Shown here one piece after another: positions 10,725-28,621 of a DNA stretch of 64,000 bases. This DNA is from an uncultured Verrucomicrobiae bacterium (GTDB lineage Bacteria; Verrucomicrobiota; Verrucomicrobiia; Limisphaerales; Palsa-1400). The position numbers were made by a program, and so were the translations under genes. Location: NCBI GenBank assembly GCA_963702845.1, contig OY969763.1, positions 96,001-160,000 on the forward strand. Reading direction: 5' to 3'. The notes beneath the pieces are model-generated. The model ran no database searches. It saw only the letters and a list, made by a program, of their open reading frames with translations, and was not told the origin of the DNA. Within the stretch, counting starts at the first letter, position 1. Every line of letters begins with the position of its first letter.

Positions 10725-10828
10725 ATTTTTGTTCGTTCGATGTTAGATTGCGAGTCCAGCTTCTTGTGTGGGCTTTGCAGAGTGATCTTCATTAATTCAA
10801 ACGAGCGTATGGTTGCTAGGTGTGTTTC

Positions 10829-11581
10829 TTAATGAGGATGTCGGAAGAGTTTGATAGAGATGCAAGCGTGTCGTGCGCCACGCCTTTGGTTTGTTCTGTT
10901 TTGTGGATTCCGTGCTGTGTGAGCGCGATCGGCGAGGTCTTTAATCAGCGAGGCCATTGGTGGTCTGGCAAATTCGTGGCGCCAGCCGACGATTGACGGG
11001 TCGGTGAGCCACTGAGGTATGGCAGGATAGCGTTTCTGTTCCAATTCGTGTTGGAGGTTGTCGGAGAGAAGTCGGACAATCCATGCAGCTTCACGCGTCT
11101 GCTTATTGGCTTCGTTGTCGCGGTTTAGTTTGTTGTGAATCAAGACACCGCCGAAGGCAAGAATGGCACCCAGTGCGGTTGAGAGCAAAGATACCACCCA
11201 GGCTGAAATCGGGCTTTGAGCAGGCATCATGCTGATAGTTTTAAAAAGCGCACAGTTTTTGTTTGATGCGGTGAGCATTACAGCAAGCTCCTCGTTCTCC
11301 GACAGTGGGGCCAATTCCAGATTTGTCAGAAGTGTTGTGAGTTGCAAGCTGCCGCTGGAGTAGGGCTGTAGGTTGGGTAAACGCAGCAAAGCCCATGATG
11401 TTGCGCTGGGAGTCTTCGCTGGTAGCAGTAATGTGATGCTCGTGCCACCCGATGCAGACCTCGCCGCCCAGGATTCAACGGTGGGAGGATTTGGGGCGAA
11501 GACTGGACTGGCGGTCGTCCGGTTGGCCAGAATGCAAGCGGCACAGAGGAACGTTGGAAGTAGTGCCCTAGGCGATGCCAT
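10829..11581 (-). CDS. Hypothetical single-pass membrane protein with signal peptide
   Basis: Hydrophobic N-terminus, internal TM (AWVVSLLSTALGAILAFGGVLI); overlaps upstream NTPase stop; 3' end may be frameshifted. Confidence 0.6.
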   Translation of the reverse strand: MASPRALLPTFLCAACILANRTTASPVFAPNPPTVESWAARSASGGTSITLLLPAKTPSATSWALLRLPNLQPYSSGSLQLTTLLTNLELAPLSENEELAVMLTASNKNCALFKTISMMPAQSPISAWVVSLLSTALGAILAFGGVLIHNKLNRDNEANKQTREAAWIVRLLSDNLQHELEQKRYPAIPQWLTDPSIVGWRHEFARPPMASLIKDLADRAHTARNPQNRTNQRRGARHACISIKLFRHPH

Positions 11582-13724
11582 AGATTAGTTTTAGTTGCGT
11601 CATTATTGCTTCGGTTTTGGATTGTGCTTCACTTGAATACTTGTTTACGTCGAGAAAGTTGTCGCTTGACGCGTTGATACGCACGAGTTCGTCCAAAATG
11701 GACTGCCGGATTTGGGAGACGTTTGGAATCGTTTCGGGGGCCACTTCTTTGAGGCGGGCAAATGCTTTTGAGTAGATTTCTTGTTCGATGGCGAGCGAAT
11801 GGCGGAGAATCTCCAAGAAGACGAGGACCTGCCGGGCTTTGTGTCTAATCATTTCCTTCGTGTGATTGATGTGCTCTCGCCCGCTTTCCACGAGATAGCC
11901 ATAGTGTTTGATTGTCGAAAACGGTATGGCAAATATGTCGGCGACCTCTCTAGGAACATAAAGGTGAAAGTCGTCGACTATCAGTTGGAGGTAAACAAAG
12001 GTGTCGAACACGCTTTTACAACAGTGTTCGCCACGTGGAGACAAAGAAATGGCACTAATCCGCAATTTGTGTTTGTGGTGGGGATGCAGTGACCTAGTGA
12101 CGGAAAGGGTGTTTGAGCAGTCTGCGTTGGAAAGGCTTCCGAGGAGAAGGCGGCATAGCTTAGGGCTATAAAATCCGACATCGTTGTCTGCCAAAATACG
12201 GAGGATGTTTTCGGTTGCACATGTCCCTTCTTTTGCAAGAAGTTCGCAAATGAGGCGCTTTAACCAGTAGCTGTGGTTCATCTCAACGTCTTTGGGATCC
12301 TGCGTTGCGGTTGGCAGGTGGCGCGCAAGGTAAATATTCGGAAACTTTGACGTGAACTGCGAATACAGCGCAAGCTCGCCGAGAATGAACGAGATGAGTG
12401 CGACGGGTTGGCGGTGCGTGAATTGTTCGAGCATGGAACTTGGGTCATTGTCGGTTCCGTGCTTACTCCATCCGTAACGTGAGAAATAATCCATCAGTTG
12501 GCGGTAACCGTGATTACATAGCTTGTACAAGGAATCCACAACGGAGTTCTGTTCGTCCAAAAGTTCGGAACTAATTCTCCTAGTGACGGCTGCGAAGTGC
12601 TTACGCCTTCCTTCGATCGTTTGGAGGCCGGAAGCAAATTCGAGGAGTGGAATACGAGACCGAACTACTGTTCTCAACGCCGCGGCTTTGAGCACGTAGG
12701 CGTCTCGCTGAAGGGGCTGCGCGATGGACGGCTGTAACGAGGTGCCGTTGGCGAGATCGCAGAGTATGTCATACGTATCCGTGCGCGAGACGAAAAGGAT
12801 ATTAGCACCGATGCTGCCGAGTGCCATGTCGTGTGAGAACACCAGAAGGCAGCGAATCATTTCCTCGATATACGCTTCATCTCCCGTGGTATCGTCGGAA
12901 TCAAATAAGTTACTGTCGCGATGATGAATGTACTTGTCGACATTGTCGATTATGACGGTGAGTCTGCGGCCAGTGTGCTGGTAGATTGAGCGAATTAGAG
13001 CTGTGAGGGCTTCGGTTCCTTGGGTTTTGATGACGGGGCGTGCGAAGCCGCTGCGCTCAGAAGCTGCAGGTGGAAATGCGAGCGGCATGTGTTTGACGAA
13101 CTCGTCATACAGGGGCTTTACCTCTTTATGTTCGACAAGGAACGAGTGCTTTTTGAATACGTCTCGGGCGTGGTCGGCCAAACGGGATACAAAATCTTCA
13201 GCTGTGACGTCGACTACAGATCCTTGACTGTAGTCTTCTATATCGGCTCGCAAGAACCACATTAACGCTTTTTCGATATGAGGTTTGAAGGTGTTCGTGA
13301 TGAGGTAGTTTACAAATGCGGTTTTGCCGATACCGACGTCGCCGAGAAGGTACCTTACTCGGTTTCTATATTCAAAAGGGCCGTGAATGAAAGTGTCGTT
13401 GACGAAGTCGCTGAGTGTTACTTCTGAACCGACATGAGTTTGAGAGTGGAGAACCCGCGGCGGAACATAACATTTTTCGTAAAAGAAATGTGCCATCTTC
13501 TGGGTGTCCGTCCATTCGGACGTCGGCTTATCTGTGTATACCCCGACTTGGTGGCCGAATACTTTTCGAGTGAGGGCGAGGTATTCTTTAAACGCGGGGT
13601 TGCTGTCAAGAGAAACCAGAGGCGTGCGGTGGTAAATTGACGCTGTGCGCTCTTTGAACAGGTGATACTGAGTTCTTGGAGTTTCGGTTGCGTTTTGCAT
13701 TTGGGGAGTTAGTGGTCGATTCAT
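11568..13724 (-). CDS. Unclassified P-loop NTPase (STAND/AAA-like), 718 aa
   Basis: Walker A GDVGIGKT, Walker B TVIIDNVD, sensor-like ILFVSR. Confidence 0.8.
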   Translation of the reverse strand: MNRPLTPQMQNATETPRTQYHLFKERTASIYHRTPLVSLDSNPAFKEYLALTRKVFGHQVGVYTDKPTSEWTDTQKMAHFFYEKCYVPPRVLHSQTHVGSEVTLSDFVNDTFIHGPFEYRNRVRYLLGDVGIGKTAFVNYLITNTFKPHIEKALMWFLRADIEDYSQGSVVDVTAEDFVSRLADHARDVFKKHSFLVEHKEVKPLYDEFVKHMPLAFPPAASERSGFARPVIKTQGTEALTALIRSIYQHTGRRLTVIIDNVDKYIHHRDSNLFDSDDTTGDEAYIEEMIRCLLVFSHDMALGSIGANILFVSRTDTYDILCDLANGTSLQPSIAQPLQRDAYVLKAAALRTVVRSRIPLLEFASGLQTIEGRRKHFAAVTRRISSELLDEQNSVVDSLYKLCNHGYRQLMDYFSRYGWSKHGTDNDPSSMLEQFTHRQPVALISFILGELALYSQFTSKFPNIYLARHLPTATQDPKDVEMNHSYWLKRLICELLAKEGTCATENILRILADNDVGFYSPKLCRLLLGSLSNADCSNTLSVTRSLHPHHKHKLRISAISLSPRGEHCCKSVFDTFVYLQLIVDDFHLYVPREVADIFAIPFSTIKHYGYLVESGREHINHTKEMIRHKARQVLVFLEILRHSLAIEQEIYSKAFARLKEVAPETIPNVSQIRQSILDELVRINASSDNFLDVNKYSSEAQSKTEAIMTQLKLIYGIA

Positions 13725-13978: not shown

Positions 13979-14200
13979 GGTAAGCCACGAAATTAGAACG
14001 AAGGCCGAAAAATCGATCGATGTGCGTGCATCCGTCACGCGTAATGCTTTTTGAGAGAGATGCAGCTGTACTGCCGGCGCTGGAGGCCACGTGCACGAAA
14101 AGGAAATAGCCGCCGCGCCGGTCGCACTTTGCAATGCAGAGAGCAACGGTGTTTCGAGAGTTGCAGGATGGCGGTGTTAGGCTCATCGTTTGTCGCGATT

Positions 14201-15517
14201 ATGGAAATCGTTTATTGCGTGATCTGCTTTGCGGCAGGAGCCGTGGTTGCGGGTTTTATGGTAGCGTCACGATACAGGGCGGAATTGCAGTTTATGCAGG
14301 AAAGGAAGACGACCTTGGAGGGCGAGCGGGATAAGGAAAAAGGCGACTTGGCGGCGGCTCAAAGTGAAGTCGTCAGACTGACGGGAGGATTAGCAGCAGC
14401 GAGTGCGAACCTGAGTAATGCGGAGAGCCGACTGAAGGATTACGGCAAGGAAGTGGAGCAGATGCAGGGAAGATTAAAGATCGAGTTTGAGAACCTAGCA
14501 AACCGAATTCTGGATGAGAAATCTTCAAAGTTCACAACACAAAACCAAACGAACCTAGACCTATTGCTGACGCCGCTCCGGCATCAGATAGCCGAGTTCA
14601 AATCCAAGGTGGAAACAGTCCATACTGAGGACCAGACCGATCGGGCGGTTTTACGGTCGCAAATCGAATTATTGAATACGGCAAGCGTTGAGATGACCGG
14701 CGAAGCGAAGAATTTGACATTGGCGCTGAAAGGGGATTCGAAGACTCAGGGAAACTGGGGCGAGCTGATCTTGGAGAAGGTGCTCGAGAGTTCCGGCCTG
14801 ACCAAGGGGGTGGAGTTCACTGTTCAGGGGTCCTTAAAGGACGAGGCTGGCGCGAATTTGCGTCCGGACATAGTTATCTGCTTGCCTGATGACAGACACT
14901 TTGTGGTGGATTCCAAGGTTTCACTGACGGCCTACGAGCGCTACTACAGCGAAGGTGACACTGAGCAGCGGCAGAGGATTCTCAAGGAACATGTGTTTTC
15001 AGTGCGGAAGCACGTTAAGGAACTGGCTGAAAAGAAATACCAGGACCTTTATCAAATCACGACGCCCGATTTCGTTTTCATGTTTGTTCCGATCGAGCCC
15101 GCGCTGAGTTGCGCCCTGCACGCGGACAGCGCCTTATTCAACGATACTTTTGAGCAGAAGGTGATCTTAGTGACGCCGTCGACCTTGCTGGCCACTCTCA
15201 GGACCGTGGCACATATTTGGAAACAGGAAAAACAGACACGTAATGCAAAGGAGATAGCCCGCAAAAGCGGTGCGTTGTATGACAAGTTCGTTGGTCTTTA
15301 TGATGATCTGTTGAAGATAGGTGCGCACCTCGAGGCAACAACCAAGGTTTACCACGATGCCCTCGGCAAGCTAAAGGATGGTCGCGGCAACCTGATTAAG
15401 AGTGCTGAAGACATCAGAATGCTCGGAGCAAAAGCGGACAAGAGGCTGCCGGACGCTTTGGTGCAGGAGGTAGGTGAAAGGGCCTTGGCCGCTGGAGATG
15501 ATCATGTCCGAGAATGA
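14201..15517 (+). CDS. rmuC: RmuC-family protein with N-terminal TM and coiled coil
   Basis: LKGDSKTQGNWGELILE, LRPDIVI.LP, VVDSKVSL, TPDFVFMFVPIE, VTPSTLLATLR, GRGNL. Confidence 0.92.
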   Translation: MEIVYCVICFAAGAVVAGFMVASRYRAELQFMQERKTTLEGERDKEKGDLAAAQSEVVRLTGGLAAASANLSNAESRLKDYGKEVEQMQGRLKIEFENLANRILDEKSSKFTTQNQTNLDLLLTPLRHQIAEFKSKVETVHTEDQTDRAVLRSQIELLNTASVEMTGEAKNLTLALKGDSKTQGNWGELILEKVLESSGLTKGVEFTVQGSLKDEAGANLRPDIVICLPDDRHFVVDSKVSLTAYERYYSEGDTEQRQRILKEHVFSVRKHVKELAEKKYQDLYQITTPDFVFMFVPIEPALSCALHADSALFNDTFEQKVILVTPSTLLATLRTVAHIWKQEKQTRNAKEIARKSGALYDKFVGLYDDLLKIGAHLEATTKVYHDALGKLKDGRGNLIKSAEDIRMLGAKADKRLPDALVQEVGERALAAGDDHVRE

Positions 15518-16039
15518 AAAAAGACAGGCACTCCTGTCTTTAGGGGAAAAGATCCGCTCACGTGAGAACTGGTGGCTTTATCCAGCCGAACCAGACGTCG
15601 AGGGTTTCTTGGGCACTGATCCAATTTTCATTGTAGGTGACCAACCATCTACCGCCGCGTGGGAGTATGAGCATCCGCATCGGCGTGCCTTTTATGATTG
15701 CTTGTCACATTGGGCGCTGGCGGTTCGCACTTAACAGACGTTTACAAACGCCGAGGGTTCTCGGGCGAACTGCGAAACGGGCTACCGGATGACTTTGATG
15801 AGCATCTGGAAATATTCCGTGAGGAAGTGAAACTCCTCAACCCAACAACAATCTTGGCATTGGGTCGGGACGCTTATGGACTTCTGCTGAAGCATACGCC
15901 TTACTTAACCAACCGGATCATGCGCGTATGGCATTTCGGAACTGTGCGGCACGGCAAGCTTGAGGAATTTCAGGCGAGACTGCGACACGGAATCGTTACC
16001 GCGCGGCGTAGAATGAAGCTTGGGAGAAACGGCGATTGA
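15504..16039 (+). pseudogene. Uracil-DNA glycosylase-like protein split by a 1-nt frameshift
   Basis: FIVGDQPS in first frame; HLTDVYK, EVKLLNPTTILALGRDA, VWH in second; shift near 15698. Confidence 0.65.
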
Positions 16040-16121
16040 GTTGATCCAAGGCATGGTGTCGGTTATCCGCTGCCGGCGCTAGAGGCTGGGTGCATGAAAA
16101 TGTAATACCCTCGCTGCGGCC

Positions 16122-16658
16122 CTAGTCCGTTTTGGGTTGCACGGGAATTGGGTTCAGACGAACCTTCTTATATATCTTATCCCACTCGATTGGTTTTATC
16201 GGTTGTAGAAAGTTTTTAAAACAAATCTCGAGCGCAGTTTTCATCTCTGGCTCACGTTGCAATATCGCGAGACTGAATTCCGCTCTGATAGCAGAGTTTT
16301 TCGTCATAGCCAACCTCTGCAGGGCTTCCGCTCGAACCTCGTTAAAAATCCGAACAGCATTTGCAGAAGGTAGTTTGTTTACCGCCGCGAACTCTGTAGC
16401 TGACATGCGAAAACGGAATTCATATTTGCCGATGCGCACCAAGGTGCTCCTAAGGTGTCGTTCGATGAAGTTTGCTGCCTCGATTTTTACCTGCGCCGCA
16501 TACTTTTTCCCCAAACTCCCATTGAATATGTCAAACGATCTGATCCTGAGTTCGTAGGAACCACCGTTGGGATGCGGTTCGGAAAACGATTCTCGGTAGT
16601 GGGCCTTTTGGGTTTTGTCCTGACGATTGTGATCTTCGCGCTGGAACTTCCAATCCAT
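16122..16658 (-). CDS. Hypothetical protein
   Basis: 178-aa ORF filling the gap; no motif. Confidence 0.5.
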   Translation of the reverse strand: MDWKFQREDHNRQDKTQKAHYRESFSEPHPNGGSYELRIRSFDIFNGSLGKKYAAQVKIEAANFIERHLRSTLVRIGKYEFRFRMSATEFAAVNKLPSANAVRIFNEVRAEALQRLAMTKNSAIRAEFSLAILQREPEMKTALEICFKNFLQPIKPIEWDKIYKKVRLNPIPVQPKTD

Positions 16659-16766
16659 GTTGGGAGGCTAGTTGACACGAGAACAAAGAGTCGAGAGTTG
16701 AATTAGGCGGCTGCGGGCTCACTGCAAACGCGTGTTGCCCGATGCCCCAACAAGGCCTAGCATTCG

Positions 16767-17678
16767 GTGCAGATAACTATGACTGCGGCAGAATTGTTGG
16801 AGAAATTGGGTAAGGTGACAGTCTGGAAACGCGGAGGTGAGCGTGCTCCGCACAAGCCGCTCTTGATCCTGTTGGCAGTCGGGCGGATTGCGCAAAACAA
16901 GCCCAGGTTGATGCGGTTCGCTGAGGTCGAGGAACCGCTCCGGCAGTTGTTGATAGAGTTTGGTCCCCGCAGAAAATCATATCACCCGGAATACCCGTTC
17001 TGGTATTTGCGCAATAATGGCATTTGGGAAATTCCTGATGCCGGAGATGTGGCCCTTAAAAAGAACCATCGAGACCCAAAGCTTGATGATATTCGAAGAT
17101 TCAGCGGCGGATTTTTACCCGAGGCCTACGAAGTTCTGCACAAACATCCAGGATTGCAAAGGGAGGCGGCCACGGAAATCTTGAAGGCGAATTTCCCAGA
17201 TTCTCTTCACGAGGAAATTCTCAGCGCCATCGGAATTAGTCGCGAAGATGCGGAAACGAAGCGCAAGAAGCGCAATCCAGAATTCCGCTTGCTGGTAATG
17301 CGTGCTTACCAGCACAAATGTGCGATATGCGGATTCGATATGCGATTAGGAGCGTCCGGTTTGGGTCTCGAAGCGGCCCACATTCAGTGGCATCAGGCAG
17401 GTGGCCCGGATAGCGTAGATAACGGCCTTTGTCTTTGGACCATGCATCATCATCTTTTTGACCGCGGGGCGTTCGGGCTCACGAATAGAGGACAAATTGT
17501 GGTCAGCGAAGAAGTCCATGGCTCCAGCGGGATTGATGAATGGTTGCTCCGCTTCGAAGGACAGCGACTAAAGAAGCCACAGCGGGAGAGCTATCTTCCT
17601 AAACAAGAGTTCATGGACTGGCACCGGACGGAAGTATTTAAATCACCAGCGCGCGAAACGCTTAAGGCCGGCGTTTAG
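16767..17678 (+). CDS. SBD-HNH endonuclease (phosphorothioate-DNA-binding restriction nuclease family)
   Basis: RAPHKPLLIL and YPFWYL sulfur-binding-domain motifs; FRLLVMRAYQHKCAICG, LEAAHI, NGLCLWTMHHHLFDRG HNH motifs. Confidence 0.85.
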   Translation: MQITMTAAELLEKLGKVTVWKRGGERAPHKPLLILLAVGRIAQNKPRLMRFAEVEEPLRQLLIEFGPRRKSYHPEYPFWYLRNNGIWEIPDAGDVALKKNHRDPKLDDIRRFSGGFLPEAYEVLHKHPGLQREAATEILKANFPDSLHEEILSAIGISREDAETKRKKRNPEFRLLVMRAYQHKCAICGFDMRLGASGLGLEAAHIQWHQAGGPDSVDNGLCLWTMHHHLFDRGAFGLTNRGQIVVSEEVHGSSGIDEWLLRFEGQRLKKPQRESYLPKQEFMDWHRTEVFKSPARETLKAGV

Positions 17679-17693
17679 GAAATTAAGAGAGTC

Positions 17694-18956
17694 ATGCAGG
17701 TTCATTTTCAACACTGGGATTACGAGATTCCGAGCGATTTACTCATGCGCTACGGCAGCCCGTTCTTTTCGAGGCCAGATGCGGGTGCGGCGTTAAGAGA
17801 GGCGCTAATACGCGGGGCTTCCCTCGTAGGGACTCACTCAATCCCAATTCGAGAGGCGCAGGTCATATGTTGCAACGAGGCTTTTCCGGAAGCCGCAGTG
17901 GCTGACCCTTTGGCTGATTTGCGCGTGTGGACTGAGTGGGAGAATGGGCATCGTGTGTTTCCATACCCCGGCCGTTTCAGCCGGCTCGGTCTAACCAAGC
18001 AGGAGGGAAAAACCTCCAGCCCATCGAGTGTCGGGGTCCTTGGCGAAATTCTTGCAGGTATATTCGCGCAATCGTTCATCGCGCCGCAGGTGTTGGTGCG
18101 TTGCATTCGTCATTGGCCGGACTTTATTTTTTATGCTGGCGGTGACATTTACTCATTCGTCGAATCGAAGGCGTTTACCGGTGCTTCTAAAGGGAACAAA
18201 TTGGTAGATCGCGTCCCTGATCCGCTGATTCGCGATGCGATGTGCGATGCAGTTCAGCAGTTAAATGCAGATCCACACCTGGAGATTTGGAGTTCTTTCA
18301 CTGGTGTCGTGGAAATTGACCCAGCTTTTTCGGTGACTGTAACAATGTTGCGGCTCTTTCCTTCGCAACAGCGCCGCAACGCAAACCCTCGGGCTATCTT
18401 ACCGCAACCGGTGGTGCGTGGAGTCGCTGAACGTGCGGTTGCGCTAGCGGCGCTCGGTCTTTCGGCAGAAGAGCTCCAGCTGCTCGGTAGCAAGGCTGGA
18501 AAGGGATTGTATTTCGTGCCGGGTACGAGAATTACGAAGGAAGATTTGCAGCGACTTGTACGCACGAATGCGTTAAAACAGGCCGAAATCGTGTTGGCAG
18601 AAATGGCTCAAGACGCAGCCGTCAGTGGATCGCGTCGGGACATCGAATCTGAGATCGAGCTTTTGATCCGAAACTATCGAGTGAATGAGTCATCTGTCGG
18701 AAAGCGATTTTTTGAGATTAAGCAAGGGGGCGAATTATCAGTCCTCCAGCGGGTGAGGAGAGCCGCTGATGAGTGGATATTCATGGCAAACTTAGCGGGA
18801 ACTGACCTCGCCCGCTTTGAAGCAAAGTGGCACGCGGATTGGAGTAAAGCGGGTGAGCCTGCGACGACCATTGATGGCCATGGCGCGTGGCGAGCTGGCG
18901 GCGCGGCGTACGTGTTAGGGCCAGCGAATATTGAAGGTTCCCCCGTTTTGCTTTGA
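17694..18956 (+). CDS. Putative PD-(D/E)xK nuclease, unclassified
   Basis: GVLGEILAG...WPDFIF...FVESKAF fits E...PD...ExK geometry. Confidence 0.65.
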   Translation: MQVHFQHWDYEIPSDLLMRYGSPFFSRPDAGAALREALIRGASLVGTHSIPIREAQVICCNEAFPEAAVADPLADLRVWTEWENGHRVFPYPGRFSRLGLTKQEGKTSSPSSVGVLGEILAGIFAQSFIAPQVLVRCIRHWPDFIFYAGGDIYSFVESKAFTGASKGNKLVDRVPDPLIRDAMCDAVQQLNADPHLEIWSSFTGVVEIDPAFSVTVTMLRLFPSQQRRNANPRAILPQPVVRGVAERAVALAALGLSAEELQLLGSKAGKGLYFVPGTRITKEDLQRLVRTNALKQAEIVLAEMAQDAAVSGSRRDIESEIELLIRNYRVNESSVGKRFFEIKQGGELSVLQRVRRAADEWIFMANLAGTDLARFEAKWHADWSKAGEPATTIDGHGAWRAGGAAYVLGPANIEGSPVLL

Positions 18957-18967
18957 TCATATCTAAG

Positions 18968-20098
18968 ATGATTTACCTCGATCACAATGCCACGACGCCT
19001 GTAGCACCGGAAGTTGTCGAAGCAATGATGCCGTATCTGACGGCTGAATGGGGCAATCCGTCGAGTAGCTACAAATTTGGAGCAAAGTTAAAATCAGTTG
19101 TCGAGGCAGCGCGGGGCCAGGTAGCTGAACTGCTGGGCGCGAACCCGGGCGAAGTGCTTTTCACGTCTTGCGCGACGGAAAGTAACAATGCTGCGATTCA
19201 CGCCGCGCTCAAGGCAAACCCTGGGAAGCGGCATATTATAACGTCGGCGGTCGAGCATTCATCCGTGCTTAATTACTGCATTGCGCTGGAAAAGGAGGGT
19301 GTCAAGGTCACCTACTTGCCTGTGGATCGCGAAGGTTTGCTCAAGATCGCAGACCTGGAAGCGGCGATCTCCGATGAAACGGCTGTGGTGTCGCTGATGT
19401 GGGCAAATAACGAAACTGGCGTCTTATTCCCATTACCGGCAATTGCTGATGTGTGTAAAGCGCGAGGCGTATCATTCCACTGCGATGCGGTTCAGGCTGC
19501 GGGCAAGGTGGAGATCAATTTGCAGAAGGTCCCAGTCGATTACCTATCGGTGACTGGACACAAATTCGGCGCGCCTAAAGGAATCGGGGCGCTATTTGTG
19601 CGTCGCAAAGTGCCATTCTCGCCGCTAATCCACGGCGGACATCAAGAGCGAGGACGTCGCGGAGGCACGGAAGCGATGCCGTTGCTGGTCGGCTTGGGCA
19701 AGGCGGCAGAACTGGCGCGCAAGAAACTGTCTGATTATAACGGGCTGGTCCGCCCGCTCCGAGACGCATTGGAGTGCGGGATTCTGTCTTCGGTTCCCTA
19801 CACAGAGTTAAATGGTCACAAGATCCATCGCCTTGCGAATACCACAAATATTACCTTCCAAGGCATAGAATCTGAGGCGTTATTAATGTTATTAGATCAG
19901 GAAGGAATTTGTGCTTCGTCGGGTTCAGCGTGCTTAGCTGATTCGAGCGAGGCGTCCCATGTTATCAAAGCCATGAAGCCCGACACACGCTCTTCACGTC
20001 AGATGGTTCGATTTTCTTTCGGGTGTCAGCATTCAGAATTGGACGTGGAACAAACCCTCGCTAAAATAAATACCGCCGTAAGCGCCTTGCGCCCATGA
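18968..20098 (+). CDS. dndA: Cysteine desulfurase (DndA/IscS-like)
   Basis: IYLDHNATT, GNPSS, HCDAVQ, GHKFGAPKG (PLP lysine), SSGSAC; symbol assigned from dnd context. Confidence 0.88.
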   Translation: MIYLDHNATTPVAPEVVEAMMPYLTAEWGNPSSSYKFGAKLKSVVEAARGQVAELLGANPGEVLFTSCATESNNAAIHAALKANPGKRHIITSAVEHSSVLNYCIALEKEGVKVTYLPVDREGLLKIADLEAAISDETAVVSLMWANNETGVLFPLPAIADVCKARGVSFHCDAVQAAGKVEINLQKVPVDYLSVTGHKFGAPKGIGALFVRRKVPFSPLIHGGHQERGRRGGTEAMPLLVGLGKAAELARKKLSDYNGLVRPLRDALECGILSSVPYTELNGHKIHRLANTTNITFQGIESEALLMLLDQEGICASSGSACLADSSEASHVIKAMKPDTRSSRQMVRFSFGCQHSELDVEQTLAKINTAVSALRP

Positions 20099-20117
20099 GC
20101 TTTGCTGGTGGAGTGCA

Positions 20118-21395
20118 TCATGTTATTAAGCCACCCATGCCAATCAATTTCTCTTTCAGTGTATTTTGCATCACGCCAAGCTTTTCGATCTCCTTGGGGG
20201 TGAACATCTCCGCTCTAAATTTCGCGTATAGGTCGTTTTGAATTCCGCCACCACCGGTTTTCGGCGGGTTTGCCACGTCGTCGGGCGGAGCCTTGCGCCA
20301 TCTTTCCACTACAAGCTTATAGCTGTCCATCAACTGTTCGGGTCCGCCTGCCAAGAGGATGTCGTCGTGCAAGATCCGCATGATTACGGCAACCCCATTA
20401 TTTTTCCACAGGAGGGATCTTGAATTTGCAAATTGATCAACCAATGCAGCCTGAATAGCGCGAATGTACAGAATAAGTAGCGACGCGCATCCTGCTGGAT
20501 CAGATTCTTTGAAAAAGCTGTAGAGTAGTGGCAAAACTTTTAAACGGCGTGTGAAGGTTTTGGGTTCAACTAGGGCTGCTAAGTATTCGACGACTGCTGC
20601 CTGCGAGATGAGGCCGACATCTCCGGGCCCTCGCATCTTGATCTTGGCCTGCCACGGGGACTCCTCGAAGCGATTGAGGATGCGCGCCACGTGACTGCAG
20701 AACCGTGAAACTGCCATTAGTCCTTCGTAAAGTTTTTCGTCTTTCGTCCCGCCGAGTGGAGCATACCCAAACAGGTCAAAGATAATCGATCTGTTAACCG
20801 GCTTCTGCCGGCCGTTGATAACGGCAAAGATCTCGGCCTGTTGGTAGAATGGTATTTCCACGAGGAATGTCACGACAACGCTCATTCGGCTGCGGATTTC
20901 ATTTTTCAGGTATCGAAATCCTTCAACCCGATGTTGTCCGTCTAGAATAACCGCTGATTTCTCCTCTCTCGGCAACACGATCGTTAGGTGGCCGTTGGCA
21001 CCGGATTTGATGATTTCGGGCTCATCAAAGCCAAGGTCAACGGCCAGAATTATCGAATTGGGGAGAAGGGCATCCGGTTGTTCAAGATACTCAGCAATCT
21101 TTTGCGCTCTCTTAGCATCGACGAAGCGCTGGTATTGTTGTCGGGGTTCTTCGCTCAAGAGTTCCTCGGCTCGGCGTTGAAATTTTGGCGAATCGAGCGC
21201 GCTAATCAGCTTATCTAGTTGGTCCTCTTTCAGTTCAACCGGTTGGAACGATTCACGCGCGAATACGCCCGTTTCGACTGGCTTATAGAGCGGGCGGCAA
21301 ATGCATAGCAGATCGTTTACGGGGACGGTTGCCACGTAGAATGTTGCCGCAGGCTGAGAAACGCGAAGAATAGGTGCTCGGAATGGTATTTTCAT
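20118..21395 (-). CDS. DGQHR-domain protein (DndB-related)
   Basis: YQR, LPNSIILA, ILDGQHR, FAVINGRQKPV. Confidence 0.9.
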   Translation of the reverse strand: MKIPFRAPILRVSQPAATFYVATVPVNDLLCICRPLYKPVETGVFARESFQPVELKEDQLDKLISALDSPKFQRRAEELLSEEPRQQYQRFVDAKRAQKIAEYLEQPDALLPNSIILAVDLGFDEPEIIKSGANGHLTIVLPREEKSAVILDGQHRVEGFRYLKNEIRSRMSVVVTFLVEIPFYQQAEIFAVINGRQKPVNRSIIFDLFGYAPLGGTKDEKLYEGLMAVSRFCSHVARILNRFEESPWQAKIKMRGPGDVGLISQAAVVEYLAALVEPKTFTRRLKVLPLLYSFFKESDPAGCASLLILYIRAIQAALVDQFANSRSLLWKNNGVAVIMRILHDDILLAGGPEQLMDSYKLVVERWRKAPPDDVANPPKTGGGGIQNDLYAKFRAEMFTPKEIEKLGVMQNTLKEKLIGMGGLIT

Positions 21396-22225
21396 AACGT
21401 GCCAGCCCTTTTTTCTCCGTTTCCGAGCTTTCCTTTCAGCCTTTCCTTTACTTCGTCCGTATCTTCTCTCGAAAGAGCGTCACCCAGTGGTGCTGGGCCG
21501 CTTGCTTCAGTAGTAATAGCCACTTCTGGACCAGGCGGAGCCGTTTCTTCACCAAGTTTTGTCCGTAACTTCGCCTGAAGCTGGTCAATGTCAGTTAGCG
21601 CTTTCTCGAGAACAGCTCGGGTGCTGTCAATTTCTGATTCATGCTGGCCCGCTCGCCGCGCACTTTTTTCCGCGTCGTCAGCTTGCTCTTTAGCTTGCGT
21701 CCGAATCTTCTCGAGCTCCTTAACGGCTTTATCTCGGAAGTCTTCCCATTCCGCACGCCATTGCGCGTCGGCCCTAGCAATACGTTTGCGATACTCATCA
21801 TTGAAGTCGCGGAGACTTTTGAATGCAAACCAACCGACGACGCCTGCTCCCAGACTCACGATGCTTGCCAGAATTCCGATCCACCAGCCAAAGCCTTGAA
21901 AGACGCTCGCTACTTTATCGACGGTCTTATTATTCGCTTCGACCGCATCCTTAAATAAAAGGTGCGTGTCTTCTTTTTTTGGAGCCAACTCGCTGGCAAT
22001 CGTTGCGGTAGTTTGTGTGGTCTGTTTTTCCAGCATAGCCAACCGGGCTAGCAGTTGCTTCCAATCTGCTTCAGTAGAGGGACTGCTGGCCTTCGTCGGT
22101 GGTAATGCAGCAGGCGATATTTGTGGCTTCAGTGGTGGCGCGGCCGCAGGGTTCGTCGGTTGAGCAACAAGGAAATGACAATTCAATCCTATGGCTACAA
22201 CCGCTAAAGATTTTAACAATTTCAT
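21392..22225 (-). CDS. Signal-peptide, single-TM, coiled-coil membrane protein
   Basis: Signal-like N-terminus, TM GWWIGILASIVSLGAGVVGWF, charged coiled coil; ATGA-coupled to DGQHR gene. Confidence 0.8.
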   Translation of the reverse strand: MKLLKSLAVVAIGLNCHFLVAQPTNPAAAPPLKPQISPAALPPTKASSPSTEADWKQLLARLAMLEKQTTQTTATIASELAPKKEDTHLLFKDAVEANNKTVDKVASVFQGFGWWIGILASIVSLGAGVVGWFAFKSLRDFNDEYRKRIARADAQWRAEWEDFRDKAVKELEKIRTQAKEQADDAEKSARRAGQHESEIDSTRAVLEKALTDIDQLQAKLRTKLGEETAPPGPEVAITTEASGPAPLGDALSREDTDEVKERLKGKLGNGEKRAGTL

Positions 22226-22271: not shown

Positions 22272-23831
22272 TCATTTTCCTATGCTGTCGGGCTTCCAAC
22301 ACTTTATTCGCATAGCCTGCCTGCCAGGCAATTTGGCGAAAGCAACGCCGGTTTCCAAATATGCGTCACCGAACTCTTCTGCCTGCAATTTCCTTCCATA
22401 CACACCCTGTAGTGAACGCAAGCCACGTTGGGTTTGGTTACAATAAAATGAAATGACCGCGCCAAGTTGGGTGGTGAAGTCGTAACTCTGGCCTTCAAAA
22501 TCGCTTGGGTCTTGAGACAGCAGCATCACAGATAAACCCTTGGCGGCGCTTCGTGTAACTAACTGGACAATCGATTCCGATTTTTTTTCCTGCAATATTT
22601 TGCGGGCTTCATCAATAACCACAACTTGTCGCATTTGTCGAAAACCACCGCGTAATGGCGCTTCAGACAAGGCGAGAAAGTGCATCGCCGTGGCATCCAG
22701 CAATAACAACATGACCAAGCGCTTCAATTCTTCAGATTTTATATGCTGTAGGCTGACAACCCACGAGCGGGAGAAGAAGTCTGCAGCCGTCATGGTTGGT
22801 GCGAAACAGCGAAGACGTGTAAGCTCGTCCAACCGCGCGGCAATGCTGTCAATCACTTCACCGTCAATTTGTAAGCGCTGTTCGTATGTTTCCTTAATTG
22901 AGGAGAGGCTGCGATCATCACCCGTGGTAATCACTTGTTCGATAGACTGCAGGAGTCGAGACTGCATTAAATTGCCAGGAGATTTACAGCAAAGGCAAAT
23001 GCTGTCGCGCAGAGTCATTGATGCATTTTGAACGGCTACATGGCCAACGTGAGGACTGGGCAAGAAGTCTAAAGGGATTGGGTGCAGCCCAACCTCTATT
23101 GGCTGTATCTCGACTGGCCAGGCGGGAAATTTATCATTTAATTTTCCGTCAGTGATAAAGGTGCCTTGGGGATCAATCAGCAACATCGGCGCGCGTGATT
23201 GCTCAACAATGCTTTGCGCCATCTGGATGCCGGTTGTGGTTTTACCGCTTCGGGTTCTTCCCATTAGTGCCAGGTGGGGAGAATTGCCCGGGCCGTTTAA
23301 ACAAAAGTCAACGGGCTCCTTGCTGTCGAATGTTTGACTGACAGGGCCGATTTTCACCCTTATTTCGCCGGGGTGCGCACTGCCAGTAACGTGAGGCGCA
23401 GTTCCTCCTCCGCTAACTTCAGGAAGGAATTCAGCCAATTTAGTAATGAGCCGTGCTTCGTCGCCGCCACAATCGTCCCAATCCTGCTTTATCAGTTTTG
23501 CGCCCCGGGCCCAGTGCGCTTCAATGTGCGGACGCAAATGTTCAACGGCCGCGCCTTCGCTGATATTCGCATCAAGAATTAGAGCGCACAACCAGAGGTC
23601 AAGATCGTCGCCAAAAAGGAGCTCACCAGGCAACGGTTTGGCATATTGGGTTTCCGACGACAATGCTGGCGGCGGGGTTGGGTCGGCAAGCGATCGGCCG
23701 ATTAGTAAACGAGCGGCATCATAACGATGGGAAAGGCCAAATTTTGTGCGAAGCTTTTCCTCAACCTCGAACGCCTCCTGGCTCGGTTTGAACAACCCTT
23801 TCCAAACTGCTTCTTTGAATTCAATATTCAT
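22272..23831 (-). CDS. DndE-like domain fused to HerA/FtsK-type ATPase
   Basis: N-term ARLLIGRSLADPTPP...LFG...EAHWARG (DndE-like); C-term PHLALMGRTRSGKT, LLIDPQG, VVIDEA, LLSQDPSDF. Confidence 0.75.
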   Translation of the reverse strand: MNIEFKEAVWKGLFKPSQEAFEVEEKLRTKFGLSHRYDAARLLIGRSLADPTPPPALSSETQYAKPLPGELLFGDDLDLWLCALILDANISEGAAVEHLRPHIEAHWARGAKLIKQDWDDCGGDEARLITKLAEFLPEVSGGGTAPHVTGSAHPGEIRVKIGPVSQTFDSKEPVDFCLNGPGNSPHLALMGRTRSGKTTTGIQMAQSIVEQSRAPMLLIDPQGTFITDGKLNDKFPAWPVEIQPIEVGLHPIPLDFLPSPHVGHVAVQNASMTLRDSICLCCKSPGNLMQSRLLQSIEQVITTGDDRSLSSIKETYEQRLQIDGEVIDSIAARLDELTRLRCFAPTMTAADFFSRSWVVSLQHIKSEELKRLVMLLLLDATAMHFLALSEAPLRGGFRQMRQVVVIDEARKILQEKKSESIVQLVTRSAAKGLSVMLLSQDPSDFEGQSYDFTTQLGAVISFYCNQTQRGLRSLQGVYGRKLQAEEFGDAYLETGVAFAKLPGRQAMRIKCWKPDSIGK

Positions 23832-23837
23832 GGCTTC

Positions 23838-25907
23838 TCAAAAAAAGAAACGATTCGGGTGAACAATGGACCGCTTGTCGGATTCAACGAATTCAACAAG
23901 GAACTTCTGGCAAACGTGTTCTTCAATGTGTTCGAGCAGGTCATGGGTTACTTCGCGATCGTGAGTCAGAACGATAACCTGATCGCAGTCGAAACGGCGC
24001 AGGGCATCAAGTGTGCGCGGACGGTATTTGGAATCTGCGTTGCCCAAGGGAGTATCAATCACCAACGGCACGCGTCGGCGAGTGATTTCCGCCAGCGCTA
24101 ATGAAAACGCAATTCCAAATGATCGCCGTTCGAATCCGCTCATGGAACTTAGCAATGCTTTAGGGCTGCGGCCGTCAAAATGCAGATGCGGCTCACCGTC
24201 GTGGGTAAATGCGACGCGTCCGCCTTTGAATCGCTGGTCAGCGATAGCGAGGAAATGTTTTGTCACATGCTCTTCTAGTCGCTGTGTTGTCACTGGCTTG
24301 AGTTGTTCGGTAAGCGCTTCGACAGCGCGCGCTACACGGTCAGCCACAGCAATTCGCCGCTGTTCGGGCTCAAGTCGTGCCAGTTCTTCGCGCAACCGAC
24401 CAATCTCAGCAGATAAATCCTGATAATCGGCTTTCCATTTCTTGATTTCATTTTCCGCGGTAGAAATGCGGCGGATGGCTTCGTCCATCTGCTCGTCGAG
24501 GCGTTTGATACGCTCTGTTAAAGTCTTAGTTTCTTCAGATTGATTACCAAGCCGAACATGCCGCGCCTTGGCATCTTCAAAGCTTTCACGAGCGTCGCGT
24601 AACGTTTTTGCCACAGCGCGAACGTGATCAAAGGCGAAACTTTTGGTTTCATTAAGGCGGTTGAGCAATCGCGCACGTTGTTGACCGCGAATATGACCAA
24701 GCACAAAATGCTCTGCGGTATCAGGATCTGGTGGTTCGTAAATAGCCTGTAATGCAGTCAAAATCCTTTGCTTAACTTTTTCGCGCGTGTCTGCGGAGAT
24801 GTTGCCAAGCAACGGATCTCGATCTGGTGGCTCAGGCATGGCCTCCGCCAAAACCCTCTCCCGCTTGTCGAGCGTTCCCTGCCGCAGGTTTTCGTATTCT
24901 TCGCGCAGTTGTTCTTTGCGCAAACGCCGCCTAATTGAAGGATCCAGTCGGCTCACTGCGAGCACCAACCCGATTTGATTTGCAAGCTCGGTAACTGCTG
25001 CTTCGGCAGAGATTTTTTTGGCTTCGGCATCCTTGAACGCTTTATTGACGCGTTCAGTATCAGCAGCCCCGCCACCACCGGCGCGAACTAAATCATCACG
25101 ACGTTGGTTGCGTTCTCGATCCAACTCGTCTCGTTGCTGGTTTAATTCTTCCAGCTCACCTTCACGCCGGCCAATAAGTTTGTTGAGTTCGGTTTGACGG
25201 CTGATTTTTTGATTTAGAATTTCCTGTTTCTCGGAAGTTTTTTGCTTTCCGCCCAATGCCCCGTGAGATCGGGTGAGGTAGGTTCGAACTTGACTCTGTA
25301 ATTCCGATAATATGCTTGCGCCGAACATGGTGTTGACTGCCTTGCGGATACCCTCTTCCCCAGCGCCTTCAATCAGCGCTTGTGCTTGTTCGCCATCAAA
25401 GAAGAATGCCGGGCACACATGGGCAGGAAATAGTTCTTTCTCGATACGCTCGTTAGCAAGAATTGCTTCCATACGCCGAACGATTCGATCGCCAACATGG
25501 ATTTCCAATTCTTCAAATCCATCACCTATGCGGGGGGTATTTGCGCTTGTAAAATACCACCGGCGGATAATTCGCACCTCCTGCTCATCCCGATCATTCA
25601 AGGTTGGCGTAAAAGTGATATCAATCACGGTCGGCTCATCAGGGTCGGCGGTAGAGCGCCGGAATTTGGCGATAGCCTTACGGTAGGAGTTGATGTCGTT
25701 TTCGGCGATGGTACGAAAGCCTTCACAATGCCGTAGTCCGAAAGAGCCAAACAGGCCGAGATACAGTGAGATTAGGAAGCTGGTTTTGCCATGGCCATTC
25801 ATCGCCCCGATCAAAACAACGGGGCGTCTTTCCGTCGGACGTTTGAAGTCAAAATTCGCGTCTGAGTAACTACGCCAGTTGGTCAAATGAAGTTTCGATA
25901 AATACAT
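23838..25907 (-). CDS. dndD: DndD, SMC-like ABC ATPase
   Basis: GAMNGHGKTS, FFFDGE, long coiled coil, MSGFER, VIDTPLG, LTHDRE. Confidence 0.88.
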   Translation of the reverse strand: MYLSKLHLTNWRSYSDANFDFKRPTERRPVVLIGAMNGHGKTSFLISLYLGLFGSFGLRHCEGFRTIAENDINSYRKAIAKFRRSTADPDEPTVIDITFTPTLNDRDEQEVRIIRRWYFTSANTPRIGDGFEELEIHVGDRIVRRMEAILANERIEKELFPAHVCPAFFFDGEQAQALIEGAGEEGIRKAVNTMFGASILSELQSQVRTYLTRSHGALGGKQKTSEKQEILNQKISRQTELNKLIGRREGELEELNQQRDELDRERNQRRDDLVRAGGGGAADTERVNKAFKDAEAKKISAEAAVTELANQIGLVLAVSRLDPSIRRRLRKEQLREEYENLRQGTLDKRERVLAEAMPEPPDRDPLLGNISADTREKVKQRILTALQAIYEPPDPDTAEHFVLGHIRGQQRARLLNRLNETKSFAFDHVRAVAKTLRDARESFEDAKARHVRLGNQSEETKTLTERIKRLDEQMDEAIRRISTAENEIKKWKADYQDLSAEIGRLREELARLEPEQRRIAVADRVARAVEALTEQLKPVTTQRLEEHVTKHFLAIADQRFKGGRVAFTHDGEPHLHFDGRSPKALLSSMSGFERRSFGIAFSLALAEITRRRVPLVIDTPLGNADSKYRPRTLDALRRFDCDQVIVLTHDREVTHDLLEHIEEHVCQKFLVEFVESDKRSIVHPNRFFF

Positions 25908-27544: not shown

Positions 27545-28621
27545 CTAATATGCGACCTCATAGCGTCGAGCGAGGCTAGTGGCCGTTTTCTGAACGTTGG
27601 CGGCCAATTCTGCGGGCCGCACAACATAGGCGTGGGTGCCCCAGCTTAGGATCCAGCGTTCGATTTCTTCGAGGCCGCTGAGGCGCATGCGCATTTGGGA
27701 ACCGCCGCATGGCAGCTCGGTCACGACCTGGGTTGGATGCCATTTTCGGCCGCGGAGTTGGTCGGTTGCAAAGGCGTCGAATTCGATCACGACTTCGTAA
27801 TCACCGGTGCCCTTCATAACACCGAAACTGCCGTCGAGATATTTGTCTGGATCGAAGTCCTTTGGTTTGGTGAACGGGTCACCGAGGCGCGGATTGGTTA
27901 TTCTGCCCAAGACGAAGGTGCGGACGTCGGACCGATCGATGTCGTATGCGATCAGATACCAACGGTTGTCGATGCAGGGCAAGTGATACGGATGGACGTG
28001 ACGCGACTCGGCGGTTTTTTGTCCAGGTTTGCGGTATTCGAATTTGAGCGCGCGATGATCCTGCAGCGCGCGCGTCACGATCTGGAAGATTTCGATGTCT
28101 GTGTCTTCTGGTGCGAACGGACGGAACGAAAGCGCCTCCTGCATGTTTTCCGCCGTGTATCGTTCCTTTCGATCCAATTGGCCGGTTAGCTTTGCGAACG
28201 CCATCAGCAGCGGTTGGTAAAATGGCGTGCCTTTGTATTGTTCGATTGCCTTGTGCGCGACGAGGAGCGCGAAGAGTTCGGATTCAGTGACCTTTACAGA
28301 GCCGGGGAATTTGTCGACGGGTTTGGAATAATAAAAGCCGTGGCGGTTGCGGTCGTATTCAATGGGCAAGTCAAAGTGGTCGCGCATGAATTGGAGGTCG
28401 CGTGCAACGGTCTTGTTTGAAACTCCCAGGTCAAACGCGATGCTTTGCGCGTTCGGAAGTTTGCCTGCTGCGATCAGTTCGTGAATGCGGAGAATTCGCT
28501 CCATGGGTTCTCTTCGGAGTTTTACAGGGCGCATGCTGCGATGGCCCGCGCGTGTGAGGGAGTGTTCACGAATTTCGGAGACTGCGGGTTTGTTATTTTC
28601 GTATTCTTTTTGAATTTTCAT
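27545..28621 (-). CDS. HTH-WYL-WCX transcriptional regulator
   Basis: VSNKTVARDLQFMRD HTH; RHVHPYHL...RWYLIAYD...RTFVLGRI WYL; WILSWG. Confidence 0.92.
   Translation of the reverse strand: MKIQKEYENNKPAVSEIREHSLTRAGHRSMRPVKLRREPMERILRIHELIAAGKLPNAQSIAFDLGVSNKTVARDLQFMRDHFDLPIEYDRNRHGFYYSKPVDKFPGSVKVTESELFALLVAHKAIEQYKGTPFYQPLLMAFAKLTGQLDRKERYTAENMQEALSFRPFAPEDTDIEIFQIVTRALQDHRALKFEYRKPGQKTAESRHVHPYHLPCIDNRWYLIAYDIDRSDVRTFVLGRITNPRLGDPFTKPKDFDPDKYLDGSFGVMKGTGDYEVVIEFDAFATDQLRGRKWHPTQVVTELPCGGSQMRMRLSGLEEIERWILSWGTHAYVVRPAELAANVQKTATSLARRYEVAY

Follow-up and report, generated by a model that had tools for sequence, protein, structure and literature searches.

Two-domain enzymes in which a sulfur-binding domain (SBD) is joined to an HNH nuclease act on phosphorothioated (PT) DNA, and an SBD-HNH homologue from Morganella morganii is among the PT-dependent enzymes of this kind that have been described (Liu et al. 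2018, PMC6224610). Locus L065 of our collection, from a genome of Morganella morganii, encodes a protein that is 40% identical to the one described here and that may or may not be the protein of Liu et al. Views differ on how PT-reading nucleases live alongside PT writers in the same cell. Mutual exclusion was the expectation of Lutz et al. (2020), who describe fewer than 3.6% of some 3,000 homologues as lying near dnd genes and suggest that the dnd-linked cases might be explained by inactive HNH domains, mutated dnd genes or a different sequence specificity; the host of ScoMcrA is described there as having no dnd genes (PMC7461809). Krishnan et al. (2024) report that Dnd loci in 698 taxa contain wHTH(SBD)+SAD+HNH genes, with DndFGH also present in only 197 of these taxa, and propose that these nucleases are the true restriction component or suicide effectors (PMC10853773). 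The linkage of SBD-HNH genes to dnd genes is, then, already on record in published surveys (PMC10853773, PMC7461809), and Table S4 of PMC7461809, which concerns the dnd-linked cases, together with the supplements of PMC10853773 may already list the clade to which our gene belongs.

An SBD-HNH gene in a Dnd operon

The DNA that we analysed is a stretch of 64,000 nucleotides, referred to as the window, and its relevant features are collected in Table 1. The sequence-only reading of this DNA had seen in it a PT-reading nuclease beside a PT writer, and that description is borne out: the protein matches the NF045808 profile ('phosphorothioated DNA-binding restriction endonuclease') from end to end, with 341.2 bits against a cut-off of 180 and residues 9-292 lying on profile positions 2-284 of 284, and dnd genes are adjacent to its gene. 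The C-terminal half carries a Pfam HNH_2 match (E 1.4e-11), while the N-terminal half matches the ScoMcrA SBD structure 5zmo (E 9.3e-10) and aligns also with the SprMcrA SBD, 7cc9. The SBD motifs had been called intact, and we agree: H25-K26 lie opposite H116-R117 of ScoMcrA and Y72-P73 opposite Y164-P165, so that the sulfur-pocket residues are preserved. In 150 representatives of the family (50% identity clusters of 5,721 proteins) the four pocket columns hold H in 133 cases, K in 144, Y in 87 and P in 147. The ATG at 16779 is the likely translation start, and NCBI and ENA list exactly the 299-aa protein that begins there (P0122). The genome has a single SBD-HNH copy; among its 40 nearest relatives no close orthologue of the gene was found, the best match having 30% identity.

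Table 1. Positions in the window of the SBD-HNH gene, its domains and W220 codon, and the neighbouring dnd genes
Feature	Position	Strand	Basis
SBD-HNH gene	16779..17678	+	299 aa from ATG at 16779; ORF opens at GTG 16767
Sulfur-binding domain (winged helix), residues ~1-150, with H25-K26 and Y72-P73	16779..17228	+	Alignment to ScoMcrA SBD 5zmo and SprMcrA SBD 7cc9
HNH (HNH_2) nuclease domain	17307..17498	+	Pfam HNH_2, column conservation, TagI alignment
TTT run with one extra base in an independent Logan assembly	17434..17436	+	Placement inferred from two protein sequences
TGG codon for W220, third zinc ligand position (Cys in relatives)	17436..17438	+	Alignments, TagI comparison
X420, 420 aa, unnamed family, with E118, P142-D143 and E157-x-K159	17694..18956	+	Lies between HNH gene and dndA
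dndA-type cysteine desulfurase	18968..20098	+	PADLOC DndA 2.1e-142; TIGR03235 370 bits; PLP-Lys and SSGSAC motifs
DGQHR protein (DndB/DpdB-like, ParB superfamily)	20118..21395	-	TIGR03187 1e-34; DGQHR motif at residue 152
277-aa predicted membrane and coiled-coil protein, no assigned family	21392..22225	-	Weak hits; hydrophobic segments in translation
DndE-like N-terminal domain fused to HerA/FtsK-type ATPase	22272..23831	-	Pfam DndE 5.6e-5, DUF87 1.3e-5
DndD-type ABC/SMC-like ATPase	23838..25907	-	TIGR03185 1.9e-66; PADLOC PbeC and DndD
Short-form DndC sulfurtransferase, 370 aa	26135..27247	-	TIGR03183 341.5 bits against cut-off 290.4
HTH-WYL-WCX regulator adjoining dnd operon	27545..28621	-	Pfam WYL 1.8e-20, WCX 1.9e-13

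The HNH gene, X420 and dndA form a compact trio, with 15 nt from the HNH gene to X420 and a further 11 nt to the cysteine desulfurase gene, and the minus-strand genes from DGQHR to WYL converge on it. The dndA ORF opens at TTG 18953; the ATG at 18968 agrees with the start used in relatives. The DndE domain of the fused ATPase is a weak match (23.8 bits in Pfam against a cut-off of 25); the protein also matches PADLOC mad8 and the C-terminus of DndH and has a Walker A motif at residue 191. DndD scores 224.9 bits with TIGR03185, under the cut-off of 245.85, and has PADLOC DndD and PbeC matches of 1e-71 to 1e-81. DndC, the only one in the genome, has the SGGKDS PP-loop and its Cys cluster. DndA, DndC, the ATPase and the DGQHR protein each retain their catalytic motifs, and the motifs of the writer are thus intact. 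A scan of the locus for promoters and terminators gave nothing over shuffled controls.

The locus lies among other defence-type genes and looks like an acquired island. At 8046-10724, on the minus strand, is a gene for an 892-aa protein with Schlafen/AlbA_2, STAND ATPase and TPR parts, and the adjoining interval 10829-13724, on the same strand, encodes a P-loop ATPase of 718 aa together with an ORF of 250 aa; the genes at 8046-13724, upstream of RmuC (14051-15517), look like further members of a defence island. The DndE-HerA/FtsK fusion, of about 515 aa, is found also at L164 12352-13902, L028 16096-17583, L057 4875-6425 and L070 14125-15666. Its gene comes after dndD in a Dnd variant that recurs across phyla and whose DndC is short, at about 370 aa; a phrase search of the main text of PMC10853773 returned no mention of such a fusion. 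By position, unnamed ORFs of 150-177 aa in L057 and L070 occupy the place of the window's 277-aa protein. Domains resembling mad2 of the MADS system occur at L161 3892-5176 and L028 14543-16120, between dndA and the SBD-HNH gene or within the dnd cluster.

X420 has no Pfam, NCBIfam or PADLOC hit, and its homologues, about 125 in number, are all unnamed. Residues E118, P142-D143 and E157-x-K159 are invariant in 44 X420 sequences and make up a PD-(D/E)xK pattern; the AF2 model has a pLDDT of 86 and a helix-strand order that fits the PD-(D/E)xK core. Structural matches are weak: PD-(D/E)xK folds align over residues 106-230 with Z scores of 4.8-5.7 (LHK-Exo 5.7, Hjc 5.3), residues 235-330 match helical parts of restriction enzymes, all VIA-align matches have Z scores of 7.5 or less, and Foldseek gave no match in the PDB at E<=0.001. 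In a protein atlas X420 falls in unnamed clusters whose nearest named neighbours are type II restriction enzymes (score 0.79, a lead only).

X420 is missing between the HNH gene and dndA in the related loci L082, L083 and L028, and is thus an insertion relative to them. Base composition gives it no foreign signature, the GC content being 0.48-0.55 throughout. It occurs in two of 401 genomes of the window's phylum, the window's own included, and was not found in five genomes with SBD-HNH loci, in 401 genomes of the phylum of G440 or in a plasmid collection. In G200, a genome of the window's phylum, an X420 homologue with 58% identity lies directly upstream of dndA (65%), and the pair faces genes for the DndE-ATPase (49%), dndD (52%) and dndC (64%); this locus contains neither an SBD-HNH nor a DGQHR gene. 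At locus L164, from the one other genome of the phylum that has X420, the homologue at 9857-11188 is directly upstream of dndA. Taken with the window's relatives, the arrangement in G200 indicates that the position just before dndA can be filled by either of two nuclease-type genes. The window has both in that position, and the older occupant is probably damaged. From its sequence motifs, the X420 family is a candidate new Dnd-associated nuclease, and two loci carry its link to dnd genes.

Tryptophan at the third zinc-ligand position

The HNH domain contains C181 and C184 (CxxC), H201, N215, H224 and D228, and where CxxH would stand it has W220-x-x-H223. W220 sits in the motif NGLCLW, which replaces the usual NGLxLC; the TGG that had been noticed at 17436-17438, one base from TGT or TGC, is indeed what the sequence reads. 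At the same site L082, L083 and L028 have TGT TCC against TGG ACC in the window. The structural zinc site, CxxC plus CxxH, is in consequence incomplete, with C181, C184 and H223 kept and Trp standing where the third ligand should be. The catalytic residues H201, N215, H224 and D228 are all kept, and their columns are invariant or nearly so.

CxxC plus CxxH is described as the putative zinc finger of EcoWI-type SBD-HNH enzymes (Lutz et al. 2020, PMC7461809). The zinc ligands of the window protein can be assigned because its HNH domain is alignable to that of TagI (6ghs, E 2.6e-5), and W220 falls on TagI Cys250. In the crystal structure of TagI a structural Zn2+ is held by C210, C213, C250 and D253, and either of the mutations C210A and C213A leaves the enzyme almost inactive (PMC6212794). 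A second cysteine of TagI, C248, stands two residues upstream of C250 and aligns with C218 of the window protein; since C248 is not a Zn ligand in TagI (PMC6212794), C218 is no obvious substitute. Trp in place of a real zinc ligand makes it plausible that the nuclease is impaired while the SBD is intact, and by analogy with the TagI mutants, which concern other ligands of the site, the HNH domain of the SBD-HNH protein has probably lost much or all of its activity. Some residual activity would be possible, because three ligands remain and some HNH_2 proteins have no zinc site: the HNH_2 structure 6yex aligns with Ala at the position of W220. The AF2 model of the protein has a mean pLDDT of 78.9, with about 90 over the SBD and about 50 over residues 190-230, and the geometry of the zinc site is therefore unsupported by it.

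If Trp were common in homologues the change would mean little, and we found it in none of the proteins and loci compared here. All 119 full-length proteins among the best 120 homologues have Cys at this column (116 by pattern and P0018, P0032 and P0040 by eye), the remaining one, P0004, being truncated. The 150 representatives have Cys in 147 cases and Ser, Thr and Asn in one each; the other ligands are conserved to a similar extent, C181 in 149 of the 150, C184 in 147 and H223 in all. Cys is present, too, in 160 of 160 related loci, of which the 80 from genomes were gathered by a pattern that contains the Cys and are biased towards it, and the 80 from metagenomes by two SBD patterns that are blind to the zinc-ligand site.

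In comparison with seven members of its clade, the window protein has seven private substitutions, just two of them radical (C220W and R238G), and counts for the other members run from 0 to 12. Its HNH domain is 77.9% identical to those of the clade members, which share 82.9% with one another, so that the shortfall amounts to about three residues. Neither the identities per domain nor the counts of private substitutions revealed a clear acceleration such as relaxed selection would give, and beyond the Trp codon the gene looks well preserved, with no clear sign of decay and with five of the seven private substitutions conservative. In the closest homologue from the genome collection (L028 10001-10901, 74% identity, a long-read MAG) a frameshift around 10434-10561, either real or an assembly error, divides the SBD-HNH gene into two ORFs that overlap.

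Reader, writer and the nature of the Trp change

The sequence-only reading had held that a nuclease that cuts PT-modified DNA should conflict with dnd genes, and that this one was disarmed to avoid self-restriction, or else recognises a PT motif other than that written by the local Dnd. The relatives speak against the conflict and against a need for disarming. In L082 and L083 (75% identity), L028 (74%), L085 (66%) and the more distant L086 (53%), dndA starts less than about 90 nt after the stop codon of the HNH gene, and all five keep the Cys; L084 (72%) has no dndA in its 492 downstream bases. Counting a locus as linked when tblastn matched the window's own Dnd proteins at E<1e-30, we found linkage in 10 of the 80 genome loci (9 of the 52 with both flanks at least 5 kb long) and in 12 of the 80 metagenome loci (9 of the 26 whose flanks add up to 5 kb or more). 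Thirteen of these 22 loci carry dndC (L161: dndD and dndE) and the other nine only a cysteine desulfurase. In seven of the nine it is less than 800 nt away from the HNH gene; in L053 and L080 it is farther off and could be a housekeeping gene. PADLOC recognised complete classical dndB/C/D/E plus dndA clusters adjoining a Cys-bearing HNH gene in L143, L096 and L161, and the HerA-fusion Dnd variant in L028, L057 and L070. Relatives that keep the Cys are thus found either immediately before dndA or next to a full dnd cluster, and the comparison of linked with unlinked homologues that had been proposed gave Cys in all 160 loci, the 22 linked ones included. It follows that carrying a writer does not require a disarmed reader. 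Because the dnd-linked relatives keep the Cys, the Trp, as far as these alignments reach, is a private change of the window lineage and no rule for dnd-linked copies.

The reading that we prefer, and to which we give an even chance of being right, is that the window contains a regular Dnd-partner SBD-HNH protein with a private loss-of-function lesion in its structural zinc site and its sulfur reader left intact. In its own clade the SBD-HNH gene is a regular operon partner of dndA, beside a writer made up of dndC, dndD, dndE (as the HerA/FtsK fusion) and the DGQHR gene. Trp would have arisen at the third ligand of CxxC...CxxH through one base substitution in a TGT or TGC codon. With the SBD and the catalytic His, Asn and His untouched, binding to PT DNA would most likely be retained, while the HNH domain would probably be misfolded or strongly weakened. 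Since close relatives in the same operon position keep the Cys, the lesion would be private and recent, perhaps a first step in gene decay or in the turnover of effectors, and the presence of X420 may be what allows it to be tolerated. A frameshifted variant in an independent assembly, described next, would fit decay that is still in progress.

A first alternative is that the codon is mis-assembled or polymorphic in a mixed population, in which case the frameshifted form would mostly be the true one and an intact Cys codon would be the less likely truth. The 90% cluster of the window protein includes two Logan products (P0004 and P0123) from one contig of 4,920 bases. One has 227 aa and is identical to the window protein up to NGLCL, after which come eight out-of-frame residues and a stop; the other has 78 aa and starts at a Met just after W220. 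This is the pattern to be expected if, as we infer from the two products, there is one extra base between CT and TTGG. A single base in the TTT run at this very codon thus separates the two assemblies, neither of which has a Cys codon there, and the mismatch makes an error or a polymorphism more likely. The window base, moreover, rests on its assembly: in the rhizosphere metagenome run X1 (Logan contigs, word share 0.07) nine short pieces fall on 15500-20500, of which only two or three are near-identical to the window, and all of them lie off position 17436. Against this alternative, the window has the same number of codons between NGLCL and MHHH as all homologues and its codon is for that reason no obvious indel error; the neighbouring genes are full length against profiles, and a true Cys would need both assemblies to be wrong. 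We consider an artefact or mixture of this kind unlikely.

Adaptive disarming, in which selection against the cutting of self-PT DNA inactivated the nuclease and kept it as a nuclease-dead PT reader, would account for an open ORF with an intact SBD and mostly conservative private changes, and for a lesion that hits a residue needed for the nuclease fold and spares the SBD; an inactive HNH is among the causes that Lutz et al. (2020) name for dnd-linked cases (PMC7461809). However, the Cys is present in all of the dnd-linked relatives, that is, in the 13 bona fide dnd loci as in the nine with an adjacent cysteine desulfurase only, and is kept even by the closest clade in the same operon position. 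Linkage is, besides, common and proposed to be functional (PMC10853773), and the frameshifted Logan variant fits decay better than it does a maintained reader. For these reasons disarming under selection appears distinctly improbable.

Quite improbable, too, is that the Trp is tolerated, the protein folding with three ligands or with no zinc and remaining an active PT-dependent or PT-sensing nuclease. The three ligands and all catalytic residues that it keeps, the absence of clear decay elsewhere in the gene, the Ser, Thr or Asn of three of the 150 representatives and the lack of this Cys in 6yex are all compatible with such a protein. The column is nevertheless near-invariant for Cys, with no Trp in the 150 representatives or the 160 loci, C210A and C213A nearly abolish the activity of TagI (PMC6212794), and a bulky indole in a tetrahedral Cys3His site would hardly be neutral. 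That the Trp variant has been re-purposed as a nuclease-dead PT reader for which X420 supplies the cutting, as a two-part PT-sensing effector caught in mid-replacement, we regard as very improbable indeed.

Comparison with known systems

Our findings supply a natural pair for the question of coexistence: close relatives with an intact enzyme in a dndA operon on one side and the zinc-ligand mutant of the window, together with the frameshifted assembly, on the other. The Cys and Trp forms, combined with their cognate writer, would bear on whether a linked nuclease cuts, spares or depends on the PT of its host. Taken alone, the Trp is a lesion of a single lineage and of uncertain sequence quality, useful and not surprising.

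SspE and DndI consist of a DUF262 NTPase plus a DUF1524 HNH domain, folds that are unrelated to SBD-HNH. They are likewise described as nucleases that stand beside a PT writer and read host PT without being blocked by it (PMC9646914, PMC11662687), but the window protein has no NTPase domain. The wHTH(SBD)+SAD+HNH proteins of Krishnan et al. (2024) are, like it, SBD/wHTH HNH nucleases beside Dnd genes (PMC10853773). As described there they have three domains, with a SAD/SRA, whereas the window protein has two, lies upstream of dndA, has a mutated zinc site and has a nuclease-like gene inserted beside it. TagI, an SRA-HNH enzyme (6ghs), has the layout CxxC ... C-L-C-x-x-(D/H) in common with the window protein; it differs in reading modified cytosine through its SRA, in having Asp as the fourth ligand and in having no dnd linkage. 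ScoMcrA (SBD-SRA-HNH; 5zmm, 5zmo) has a homologous SBD (E 9e-10) and shares the H-R/K and Y-P residues of the pocket, but the window protein is without the SRA and the N-terminal head domains, and its HNH, of the HNH_2/TagI type, is only a weak match to that of ScoMcrA. With the SprMcrA/EcoWI-type SBD-HNH proteins (NF045808) it shares a length of about 300 aa, an N-terminal SBD, a C-terminal HNH_2 domain and the motifs KPxxLL, YPFW and CxxC, and it differs from them by WxxH for CxxH and by its operon with dndA. The system thus belongs to an established type, in which Dnd loci include the gene for an SBD-HNH nuclease, and what it adds is a lineage-specific mutation of a zinc ligand.
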